Assembly: GCA_963817285.1 (NCBI GenBank)
Contig: CAWFOE010000029.1
Coordinates: 6,209-70,208, forward strand
Length of the DNA stretch: 64,000 nt
Direction of reading: 5' to 3'
From: an uncultured Pseudomonadota bacterium
GTDB taxonomy: Bacteria > Pseudomonadota > Gammaproteobacteria > Natronospirales > REEB76
Shown here: one piece after another, positions 43,593 to 46,589 of the stretch
Position numbering within the stretch: position 1 is the stretch's first letter
Layout: every line of letters begins with the position of its first letter
The notes under the pieces: model-generated
The model's input: only the letters and a program-made list of their open reading frames with translations
Told to the model about the DNA's origin: nothing
Database searches by the model: none
Position numbers and translations under genes: made by a program

Positions 43593-46589
43593 ATGATGAC
43601 CAGCAACGACATAAGAAAGAGCTTCCTCGACTTCTTCAAGTCCAAGGGCCACACGGTGGTGGCGTCCAGCCCCCTAGTGCCGGCCAACGACCCGACCCTG
43701 CTCTTCACCAACGCAGGCATGGTGCAGTTCAAGGACGTGTTCCTGGGGCGCGACAAGCGGGATTACACCCGCGCCGCCTCGTCGCAGCGTTGCGTGCGCG
43801 CCGGCGGCAAGCATAACGACCTGGAGAACGTGGGCTACACCGCCCGCCATCACACTTTCTTCGAGATGCTGGGCAACTTCAGCTTCGGCGATTACTTCAA
43901 GCGCGATGCCATCCTGTACTCCTGGGAGCTGCTCACCAAGGTGTGGAAGCTGCCGCCGGAGAAACTCTGGGTCACGGTCTATGAGACCGATGACGAGGCC
44001 TATGGTTTCTGGACCAAGGACGTGGGCATCCCTAAGGACCGCATCGTACGCATCGGCGACAAGCCGGGCGGGCGCAAGTTCGAGAGCGATAACTTCTGGC
44101 AGATGGCAGACACAGGCCCCTGCGGTCCCTGCTCCGAGATCTTCTACGACCACGGCGAGGGTATCCCTGGCGATCCGCCGGGCGGTAAGCACTCTGACGG
44201 CGACCGTTATATAGAAGTGTGGAACCTGGTGTTCATGCAGTTCGACCGCTCGCCGGACGGCGTCATGACGCCCTTGCCCAAGCCCTGCGTGGACACAGGC
44301 ATGGGTCTCGAGCGCATCACCGCCGTGCTGCAGCATGTGCATTCGAACTACGAGATTGATCTCTTCATCAAGCTCATAGACGCGGCGGCAAAGGCTACTG
44401 GCGCGAAAGACAAAACGAGTCCTTCCCTGCGGGTCATCGCGGACCATATCCGCGCCTGCTCCTTCCTCATTACCGACGGCGTATTACCTTCCAATGAAGG
44501 CCGCGGCTACGTGCTGCGCCGCATCATCCGTCGCGCTATCCGTCACGGCTACAAGCTGGGACAGGAGAAACCTTTCTTCCACACCCTAGTGGCGCCCCTG
44601 GATCACGAGATGGGCTCGGCTTATCCGGAGTTGCACAAGGCGGCGTCCCATGTGGACAAAGTGCTGCTGCAAGAAGAAGAAAAATTCCTTGAAACTTTGC
44701 AGCGTGGCCTTACGCTGCTTGAGCGCGGTATTTCACCCGAATCATTCATTATTTCGGACTTTAGGAAGAAGTTGCCCGTCATCGAGATAGGCGTAGAAGG
44801 AGCCACTACAAGGGGTATTGGCCCTAATGCTGTTGGCTTTGAATACGATGCTCAGCTTGAGCTTAATAATGACCAATCAATAATTATTGATTTTGCCAGG
44901 CTGAATGAAATGAGCATCGAGGTAATTGAGACTAAGGCAGCTAAAAAACTTGAGTTTTTTGAAAAACACGGCAAGTCATTTCGAATTGCAGAATATGTTT
45001 TTTCAATAATTGGTGAAATCAATGAATCAGACTTACAGAAAATTTCTTCTCATCTAAAGAAATACCAATTCGCTCACCGTGTTCTTAAATTCGGCGATAA
45101 AGAGCTCGCGCCAATCAAGATATTAGATGGGCATATAGCGTTCACCCTATATGACACTTATGGCTTTCCTCTCGACCTAACAATGGATATATGCCGTGAG
45201 CGCGGTATTAAAGTTGATGAGGCTATATTCCAAAAAGAAATGGAGGTTCAGCGCGGCCGCGCGCGTGCTGCCAGCAAGTTCGGCGCCGAGTACGCGCAGG
45301 ACGTGGTCATCGATTCCGAGACCAAGTTCACGGGCTACGAAAGCCTCAAGGACAAGGGCAAGATCGTGGCGCTGTTCCGCGGCAAAGACGCGGTACAGAA
45401 ATTGAGCGCAGGCGAGCAGGGAATGGTGGTGTTGGACCACACGCCTTTCTATGCGGAGTCGGGTGGTCAGGTGGGAGACCAGGGCCTGCTCAAGTCGGGC
45501 GCCAGTGAATTCAAGGTCGCCGACACCCAGAAGCGGGGCGGCGGCGCCCATGCCCACATGGGCAGTGTGGTGAAGGGCGAGCTCAAGATCGGCGACACAG
45601 TGGAAGCCCAGGTGGACGCGGAACTGCGGGCTGCCACGGTGCTGAACCATTCCGCGACCCACTTACTGCATGCAGCGCTACGCACAGTGCTCGGCACCCA
45701 CGTGACCCAGAAGGGCTCGTTGGTGGCGCCGGACCGACTGCGTTTCGACTTCTCCCATTACCAGGCGGTGACGCCGGAAGAACTCCAGCGCATCGAAGAC
45801 TTGGTGAACACGGAGGTCCGGCGCAATGAAGCGGCGGACGTGCGCGAGATGGGTTATGACGAGGCTATCAAGTTCGGCGCCATGGCGCTCTTCGGCGAGA
45901 AATACGGCAACCTGGTGCGCGTGATGAAGTTCGGGGATTTCTCCACGGAACTCTGCGGCGGTACCCATGCGTATCGCACCGGCGACATCGGTCTCTTCAA
46001 GATCGTGAGCGAAGGTGGCGTAGCCGCCGGTGTGCGCCGCATCGAGGCAGTGACCGGTGCGGGGGCGCTCGCCTACGTGCGCGGTCTCGAAGGCGTGTTG
46101 CGCAAGACCGAAGACCTGCTGCGGGCCGGCAAGGACGACGTGGTCGCCAAGACCGAGGCGCTTTTGGAGCGCAACAAGCAGTTGGAGAAACAGCTCGCCC
46201 AGATGTCCGGCAAGCTGGCGGCCAACCGTGGCGATGAACTCTTGTCTCAGGCTGTGGCTGTAGGCTCGGCCAAGCTCCTGGCGGCGGAACTGGAAGGCGT
46301 GGATGCGTCGGCGTTGCGGGACCTCTTGGATCAGCTCAAGAACAAGCTCGGCTCGGCGGTGATAGTTCTAGGCGCTGCCAACGAGGGCAAGGTGAGTCTC
46401 ATCGCCGGTGTCACCGCAGACCTCACGTCCAAGGTGAAGGCCGGTGAGCTCGTGAACATGGTGGCCCAGCAGGTGGGCGGCAAGGGCGGCGGCCGGCCTG
46501 ACATGGCTCAGGCGGGCGGGACTGATCCCTCCAAACTTGGCGAGGCACTCAAATCCGTGCCCGAGTGGGTGCGCGGTAAACTTGGGTAA
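43593..46589 (+). CDS. alaS: alanine--tRNA ligase carrying a ~120-aa low-GC in-frame insertion
   Basis: [18 protein letters not shown] and the editing-domain [12 protein letters not shown]. 998 aa, versus about 875 aa for typical gammaproteobacterial AlaRS. Confidence 0.95.

Follow-up and report, generated by a model that had tools for sequence, protein, structure and literature searches.

We analyzed a 64,000-nucleotide stretch of contig CAWFOE010000029.1 (assembly GCA_963817285.1) from an uncultured Pseudomonadota bacterium, referred to here as the window, and in it the gene alaS for alanine--tRNA ligase (AlaRS), which carries a long in-frame insertion. The gene order cinA-ligT-recA-recX-alaS-lysC-csrA is common to the window and three other loci (L081, L082, and L083). 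The alaS product has the Pfam domains tRNA-synt_2c (catalysis and recognition, 2.4e-220), tRNA_SAD (associated with editing, 1.9e-16), and DHHA1 (C-terminal, 3.7e-22), placing it among the AlaRS proteins, which are class II aminoacyl-tRNA synthetases. An earlier reading of the sequence alone (the sequence-only reading) had described an AlaRS of 998 amino acids with an in-frame extra segment; the open reading frame (ORF) bears this out and the extra segment comprises residues 380-510. Two loci served for comparison at the DNA level: L083, the DNA of one insert-less close relative on a 393-kb JGI contig, and L081, the alaS DNA of the AlaRS protein P0051, from the metagenome-assembled genome GCA_035279405.1. 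The features of the gene are the following.

43593..46589, plus strand: alaS coding sequence, a single long intact ORF for a 998-amino-acid alanine--tRNA ligase
44669..45256, plus strand: foreign cassette of 588 bp, standing for 219 bp of the insert-less L083 (11077..11295)
44669..44729, plus strand: 5' co-transferred flank, about 20 codons of conserved AlaRS sequence in AT-rich codons
44730..45122, plus strand: insert of family A, 131 in-frame codons for AlaRS residues 380-510 (ISPESF...APIKI)
44736..45092, plus strand: predicted PD-(D/E)xK-like core, residues ~382-500 (helix, three strands, helix, strand, helix, strand)
44847..44849, plus strand: Asp419, where predicted strand 2 begins and the 'PD' aspartate would stand; the window and P0051 have the same residue here
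44889..44897, plus strand: Asp433-Phe434-Ala435 at the (D/E)-x-K position in predicted strand 3, with Lys replaced by Ala (Ser in P0051)
45123..45256, plus strand: 3' co-transferred flank, 134 bp or about 45 codons of conserved AlaRS sequence (to ...KEMEVQ) in AT-rich codons

The sequence-only reading had seen an AT-rich tract at about 44690-45245 and had proposed that conserved residues beside the insert are re-encoded with AT-rich codons. The GC content of third codon positions (GC3), measured in 20-codon windows, lies at 0.75-0.95 as far as codon ~350, falls to 0.15-0.65 (mostly ≤0.5) at codons ~351-550, and returns to 0.85-0.95 beyond. Together with BLASTN, these values bound the tract at 44669..45256, and the low-GC3 tract takes in both flanks. 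The cassette as a whole has a GC3 of ~0.4 compared with 0.81 in the remainder of alaS, and the 5' and the 3' flank each have a GC3 of 0.40 where L083 has 0.95 at the same codons. Total GC content reaches a minimum of 0.31 in the tract (150-nt windows), against ~0.63 for the locus. We estimate from base composition that a frame would stay open over 131 AT-rich codons with a chance of ~1e-4. The net gain from the cassette is 123 codons (998 amino acids versus 875 in the insert-less L083 allele). The alignment of the product to tRNA-synt_2c ends at residue 381 (profile position 374 of 552), and the insertion site lies within the helical tRNA-recognition part of this N-terminal Pfam domain, not between the catalytic and tRNA-recognition parts as had been supposed. 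Scanning the AT-rich tract for promoters and terminators gave nothing above shuffled controls. An exact 13-nt direct repeat, TGAGCGCGGTATT, occurs at 44720..44732 and 45197..45209. The two copies are in frame with a spacing of 477 nt, each encodes ERGI, and we estimate the chance expectation at ~0.01; we rejected the repeat as a target-site duplication or microhomology, since L081 does not have it and the insert is not bracketed by it.

Comparison of the window with its relatives revealed that backbone and tract have different ancestries. A database search with AlaRS from which the insert had been removed found annotated AlaRS at 90% identity, and the best relatives of the insert-free protein, P0001-P0003, have 874-875 amino acids, no insert, and a backbone identity of 93-94%. 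L083 is syntenic with the window from mutS to past csrA at 84-88% nucleotide identity, and within alaS the BLASTN similarity between them is lost at exactly 44668 and regained at 45257. In a four-way nucleotide alignment the window is L083-like to ~44669, L081-like through the flanks and insert, and L083-like again from ~45257. Likewise, the proportions of nonsynonymous (pN) and synonymous (pS) differences from L083 are 0.035-0.04 and 0.37-0.44 in the backbone, 0.37 and 0.79 in the 5' flank, and 0.28 and 0.89 in the 3' flank. Relative to L081, the backbone is ~72% identical in nucleotides (74% protein identity to the P0051 backbone), and the 3' flank reaches 80-87%, the highest nucleotide identity along the whole gene. 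The cassette matches none of the insert-less P0001-P0003; it is closest to the tract of the distant P0051/L081, its nearest known relative, to which it is 53-87% identical in nucleotides, with 63% amino acid identity between the two inserts. Tracing a donor by the protein sequence of the 3' flank was uninformative, with P0051 matching at 39 of 46 positions, followed by a broad group at 35 of 46. Hence, alaS of the window is a recombinant mosaic. Since the breakpoints, the four-way alignment, and the pN and pS values show that the flanks switch ancestry together with the insert, flank, insert, and flank were exchanged as one unit by homologous recombination, and such co-conversion of flanking host sequence is a hallmark of homing elements. 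The sequence-only reading had left open an acquired domain or a recombined foreign segment of alaS; both descriptions hold, with a backbone close to P0001-P0003 and a tract close to P0051/L081.

We surveyed the best 120 hits of the search with insert-free AlaRS, plus fragments, sorted by length. Twelve of these hits are AlaRS of 930-1035 amino acids, and all 12 have 116-142 extra residues at the same loop, bounded in every case by the same two motifs, with ...G(M/L)xLLE on the N-terminal side. Inserts of this size are present in 13 of 112 related full-length AlaRS; ~88% of the proteins, all nearest relatives included, have none. Only the P0051 insert resembles that of the window, and we call these two family A. 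The others fall into at least 7 further families, giving at least 8 in total, all in related Gammaproteobacteria from soil. By hhalign, most pairs of families have no detectable relation; families B and H are linked weakly at E=1e-4, and A and B are weakly co-linear over 97 columns (E=0.018). A profile search with 13 cassettes returned mostly short AlaRS fragments matching the flanks alone and one further insert-bearing AlaRS, P0123, which represents a new family. The conserved 3' flank also comes in family-specific versions: YExEMNxQRHRAR in family B, DICREQGVTVDVEGFE in family D, and another in family A.

The distribution of the insert families is incongruent with the phylogeny of the backbones. 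The nearest backbone neighbours of every insert-bearing AlaRS are empty or occupied by another family. For the window, the nearest backbone is that of P0001, which has no insert (0.94), and for P0051 it is that of P0054, which has an insert of family D (0.89). P0049 (family B), P0050 (family C), and P0046 (no insert) have backbones that are mutually 0.91 identical. Fifty-four backbones are nearer to the window than P0051, its sole partner in family A; of these, 46 have no insert and 8 have one of a different family. Within the clade of the window (43 proteins with at least 80% backbone identity), inserts occur only in P0017 (family E) and P0045 (family B). A survey of orthologs, as the sequence-only reading had recommended, thus found inserts at the same loop and no insert typical of a lineage: the 43 closest relatives lack that of the window, and two of them have unrelated ones. 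A single defined site in a conserved host gene, with empty and occupied alleles among close relatives (91-94%), is what is seen with homing elements. We also fetched six further insert-bearing genes as DNA (L081, L082, and L086-L089), which come from NCBI, ENA, and JGI samples and from different assemblers. In all seven insert-bearing genes, the window's included, the insert has a GC3 of 0.27-0.48 and low-GC3 flanks of variable length, compared with 0.72-0.90 elsewhere in the gene; in L083, which has no insert, the conserved codons of the flanks have a GC3 of 0.95-1.0.

Three further observations concern the AlaRS proteins of the survey. In P0052, P0053, P0063, P0160, P0170, P0178, P0191, and P0228 the same loop is expanded by 8-19 residues (for example QGIQHKLRVTLENIGTGQPVRVQPQGRMIPG), and the spacing of the bounding motifs is 42-53 residues instead of the usual 34. 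These intermediate expansions in other lineages indicate that the loop is generally permissive. P0045 (L086) and P0081 have a second insertion of ~45 residues in the catalytic domain after FMQFDR (TKITNNYSDEVTAQNAC...EYRLSN), which the window does not have and which may be another mobile or idiosyncratic module. P0069 and P0058 differ in their N-terminal halves and in insert family (B and F, respectively), with visibly near-identical C-terminal halves, a pattern that suggests either recombination on a larger scale in alaS or a chimera from metagenomic assembly.

The insert is translated and under purifying selection. The ratio of nonsynonymous to synonymous substitution rates (dN/dS) is 0.18 for the insert of family A, the same value as for the C-terminal half of AlaRS, and 0.13 for family C. 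We considered known types of element. An intein would need residues that the junctions do not have: at G|I (...LLERG|ISPES...) and I|L (...APIKI|LDGH...) there is no Cys, Ser, or Thr nucleophile and no terminal His-Asn, and the +1 residue is Leu. Moreover, the insert has no Hint or intein match in Pfam at E≤1, and its predicted fold is alpha/beta and nuclease-like. Group I and group II introns were rejected, as there is no Rfam match at E≤1 over 44300..45600 and purifying selection acts on the in-frame translation. A hidden nuclease gene of the ShiLan type (described below) was rejected as well, the longest alternative-frame ORFs overlapping 44650..45260 in the AT-rich tract having 61, 56, and 46 codons, and so was a miniature inverted-repeat transposable element or a palindromic element like the Rickettsia palindromic element (RPE), with no terminal inverted repeats and no further copy in the databases searched. 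Judged from these sequence features, post-translational excision of the insert is not supported.

Searches with the insert alone found no relatives in a word search of 5.8 billion proteins, by phmmer in 1.84 billion representatives, in GTDB genomes or JGI metagenomes, in viral contigs, or by tblastn in phage and plasmid collections, and it has no match in PDB sequences, Pfam, or the PADLOC nucleases. The word search and phmmer missed even P0051, probably because the word index is sparse and the 50%-identity clusters are represented by insert-less proteins; insert-bearing relatives emerged only from the hits to insert-free AlaRS, once these were ordered by length. The exact 998-residue protein is on record nowhere else in the databases searched. 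Structure prediction on the insert alone, another check that had been proposed, was as unproductive as the searches, AlphaFold2 (AF2) giving a predicted local distance difference test (pLDDT) score of 38 from the single sequence; a result was obtained only with an alignment of several families.

In the alignments A2 and A3, the latter with 14 inserts, the order of predicted elements is common to all families: an amphipathic helix, strands, a helix, a hydrophobic strand, a helix, and a strand. With A3 as input and the window sequence first, AF2 gave a model with a pLDDT of 75.4, a predicted template modelling score (pTM) of 0.68, and the topology H-E-E-E-H-E-H-E. Its elements H11-22, E26-30, E49-52, E58-65, H71-88, and E94-102 form, at moderate confidence, the alpha-beta-beta-beta-alpha-beta core of the PD-(D/E)xK fold. 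The matches found by Foldseek, though marginal, are concentrated in this one superfamily. The top matches in PDB include the nuclease domains of Can2 and Card1, SfsA, EcoO109I, Mus81/XPF, XisH, YaeQ, R.BspD6I, Avs nucleases, and Cas4-like proteins, and the named ones among viral models (BFVD) include a restriction endonuclease, an MmcB-like protein, a phage homing endonuclease, and several PD-(D/E)XK proteins. The insert of P0017 has sub-threshold matches to six PD-(D/E)xK families of Pfam (among them AHJR-like, PDDEXK_9, SfsA, NucS_C, and NERD) and to Cas4; the window insert has no significant sequence-profile match to PD-(D/E)xK families in Pfam, PDB sequences, or PADLOC. The canonical motif is kept in P0017 (GRPDAII...CIVEVKR) and in P0123 (WFDGVF...LVEVKG), and A3 places IIIDFAR of the window opposite CIVEVKR and VLVEVKG, respectively. 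The spacing between D419 and D433, both invariant between the window and P0051 inserts, is 14 residues, compared with 13 for D...E(V)K in P0017 and P0123. MAFFT paired GPNA of the window with RPDA of P0017; we set this pairing aside, as the strand positions of the model and the motif spacing prefer D419. Overall, the model suggests with moderate confidence that the insert is a domain of the restriction endonuclease fold. As the catalytic lysine is lacking and the two acidic residues are kept, the copy in the window is probably a catalytically dead relic, although the lysine may have been relocated, for example to the invariant R391-K392-K393 in helix 1 of the model.

We propose that alaS of the window carries a gene-conversion-borne, unspliced, nuclease-derived in-frame domain cassette that is probably a homing relic, and we put the probability of this reading at about 0.55. 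The cassette would have entered, or have been exchanged, by homologous gene conversion that displaced the ordinary 219-bp loop-coding tract, and the insert would remain part of the protein, folded as a domain on a surface loop that varies in length, in the helical region that recognizes tRNA. Produced as a piece of AlaRS, an active member of the family would cleave insert-less alaS close to the loop or to the codons for YDTYGFP. An insert-bearing copy would then serve as the template for repair, so that the insert is copied in along with its flanks, and the AT-rich recoded flanks would render carriers immune to cutting. The copy in the window would be a relic, kept folded by selection because it lies within an essential enzyme. 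Homing elements pass through a cycle of invasion, fixation, degeneration, and loss. The fixed site, the empty and occupied alleles, the several families and their incongruence with the backbones, the moving flanks, the AT-rich composition, the constraint, the predicted nuclease fold, and the two intact motifs together resemble the pattern left by such a cycle, and a homing-type life cycle is the most economical mechanism that we infer from the sequences and the model. More tentatively, the inserts as a group could be a new class of selfish element, PD-(D/E)xK homing endonucleases that spread as in-frame, never-spliced domains of an essential housekeeping enzyme, the families competing for one site and decaying to inert, constrained relics.

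Several points weigh against this proposal. Family A is known from only one other genome, and the divergence between the window and L081 cassettes is old (dS ~0.9-1.4), so that no recent transfer was caught. The AF2 model from the single sequence is poor, and the Foldseek E-values are marginal (best 4.7e-3 in PDB and 6.3e-4 in BFVD, with TM scores of 0.4-0.5). For the better model, families had to be aligned whose homology is, like nuclease activity, cleavage of empty alaS, homing or transfer, and immunity through the flanks, something that we infer. The window family deviates from the PD-(D/E)xK signature at the canonical lysine, with D...D-F-A in the window and D...D-F-S in P0051, and may never have been, or may no longer be, a nuclease. 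The insertion point lies in a variable loop, and classical homing sites are usually of highly conserved sequence. Finally, a dN/dS of 0.18 is equally expected of a domain that benefits the host.

Such a benefit is at the centre of the main alternative, which we consider unlikely on balance. Here a nuclease fold would have been exapted as a nucleic-acid-binding module. Balancing or diversifying selection would maintain its divergent alleles, and ordinary homologous recombination would shuffle them. The module might contact tRNA, bind DNA for autoregulation of alaS, or protect AlaRS or tRNA-Ala against a toxin or phage factor, and the AT-richness would result from suppressed recombination and GC-biased gene conversion around the heterologous segment. 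In keeping with this, purifying selection on the insert equals that on the C-terminal half of AlaRS, most families, the window's included, lack the canonical catalytic motif, many highly divergent alleles occupy one surface loop, and GC3 is low in the same tract in which the alleles diverge strongly. E. coli AlaRS is also said to bind its own promoter DNA, as reportedly found by Putney and Schimmel in 1981. However, most related AlaRS, including all those nearest to the window, manage without an insert, two families keep an intact D...EVK motif, which would be superfluous in a module that only binds, and the window insert has no match above noise to any defence-system model. Exaptation and homing are not mutually exclusive, and the present data fit both.

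The remaining alternatives account for less of the data. Loop length does vary in other lineages, as the motif spacings of 42-53 residues attest, and the inserts could be a neutral, lineage-idiosyncratic expansion of a permissive loop, vertically inherited, repeatedly lost, and immobile. We regard this as very unlikely, since neighbours at 91-94% identity are empty or carry another family, the flanks were replaced along with the insert, dN/dS is well below 1, and long residence should have brought host GC3, yet all seven inserts stay at 0.27-0.48. A chimeric join of reads from two organisms, a possibility already raised by the sequence-only reading, might be suspected from the frameshifting indels relative to L083 in neighbouring genes (19 in recA, 11 in mutS, and 29 in tsp) and from the exact protein being unrecorded elsewhere. 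Still, the points at which ancestry switches are compositional boundaries, and the same boundaries are found within the gene of L081 itself and in five further assemblies of independent origin, so that AT-rich insert and flanks recur in six other alaS genes. The frame is kept at both junctions, and alaS has no net frameshift over 3 kb amid indel-rich neighbours, in line with the earlier remark that the reading frame is preserved in an error-prone assembly. Moreover, any organism that had contributed a cassette 53-87% identical in nucleotides to its nearest relative would itself have had an insert-bearing alaS. From these sequence comparisons, an assembly artefact appears highly improbable. In-frame insertion into a conserved essential gene, sporadic distribution, and co-converted flanks are classical signatures of inteins and mobile introns, and yet a self-splicing element, whether mini-intein or group I or II intron, is scarcely credible given the G|I and I|L junctions, the missing Hint and Rfam intron matches, the predicted alpha/beta fold, and the selection on the translation.

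Other parts of the window also have features of note. The frameshifting 1-2-nt indels relative to L083 lie in 38143..43063 and 50033..55240, and besides the three genes named above they affect a Trans_reg_C/TPR regulator (29) and sel1 (10). recA is split over at least 4 frames; recX, alaS, lysC, and csrA are intact or have compensated indels only. Sequencing errors that occur in patches, polishing of uneven quality, or genuine pseudogenes could account for this contrast. At 34525..38143, L083 lacks a 3.6-kb segment that in the window has a lower GC content (0.51-0.57). A tRNA gene (10340..10410) is followed immediately by a low-GC island (0.41-0.50; 10340..13660) in which all ORFs are small (94-165 codons) and have no obvious identity; the island looks like a tRNA-integrated genomic islet. 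Annotated genes in these and other regions are the following.

25614..25799, minus strand: 6S/SsrS RNA gene, full-length (95.9 bits)
34580..36466, minus strand: RHS-repeat/DUF6531 protein, in the 3.6-kb lower-GC segment
36451..38130, minus strand: amidohydrolase, in the 3.6-kb lower-GC segment
48568..48658 and 55596..55669: tRNA genes

We compared the alaS insert with known systems. The nearest precedent is the ShiLan domain, a read-through in-frame insertion in DNA methylases of actinobacteriophages (Arsenault, Gosselin and Gogarten 2025, PMC11855218). Both are read through in frame, have no detectable intein or intron splicing apparatus, show a sporadic, homing-like distribution, and are predicted to be retained as a looped-out module. 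However, the HNH endonuclease of ShiLan lies out of frame and its in-frame peptide is no nuclease, whereas the in-frame peptide of the alaS insert has a predicted PD-(D/E)xK fold, and the host of ShiLan is a non-essential phage methylase rather than an essential cellular aminoacyl-tRNA synthetase. Inteins with homing endonucleases likewise sit in frame in conserved essential proteins, are sporadic, co-convert their flanks, and follow a cycle of invasion, degeneration, and loss, but the alaS insert has neither splicing motifs nor a Hint fold and must remain in the mature enzyme. Among homing endonucleases, I-Ssp6803I is of the PD-(D/E)xK type, the fold class predicted for the alaS insert, and T4 Seg and Mob are free-standing phage enzymes (reviewed in PMC3943268 and PMC2790892). 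These enzymes move by double-strand break repair with co-conversion of flanks, and flank differences protect the carrier, all of which may apply to alaS. In contrast, I-Ssp6803I, Seg, and Mob are separate polypeptides encoded in introns or intergenically, while the alaS domain is fused into its host protein and the window copy lacks the catalytic lysine.

Aminoacyl-tRNA synthetases have idiosyncratic insertion domains that are lineage-specific, lie in surface loops, and are vertically inherited. The alaS insert resembles them as an extra folded module on a permissive loop that leaves the core enzyme intact; it differs in that it recombines as a cassette, is foreign in composition, and has many alleles, unrelated to one another, in close relatives. 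In a full-text literature search, no inserts that are mobile or have a nuclease fold were found described for AlaRS or any other aminoacyl-tRNA synthetase. The insert may be a selfish insertion of the homing type, or a mobile domain cassette, whose form is new in being a domain of predicted PD-(D/E)xK fold that is in frame and retained, and whose host, an essential synthetase, is new as well.

On the usual view, a selfish insertion in an essential gene needs an exit from the gene product by intron or intein splicing. If our proposal is true, a nuclease domain persists and spreads within a working aminoacyl-tRNA synthetase, which would enlarge the set of homing elements and show concretely how mobile DNA could supply enzymes with new domains. 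AlaRS would then have a permissive insertion site exemplified in nature, and a set of compact site-specific nucleases might be gained as well. Even read conservatively, the data reveal clear cassette-like allelic exchange inside a core translation gene, a class of genes usually treated as vertically inherited phylogenetic markers.

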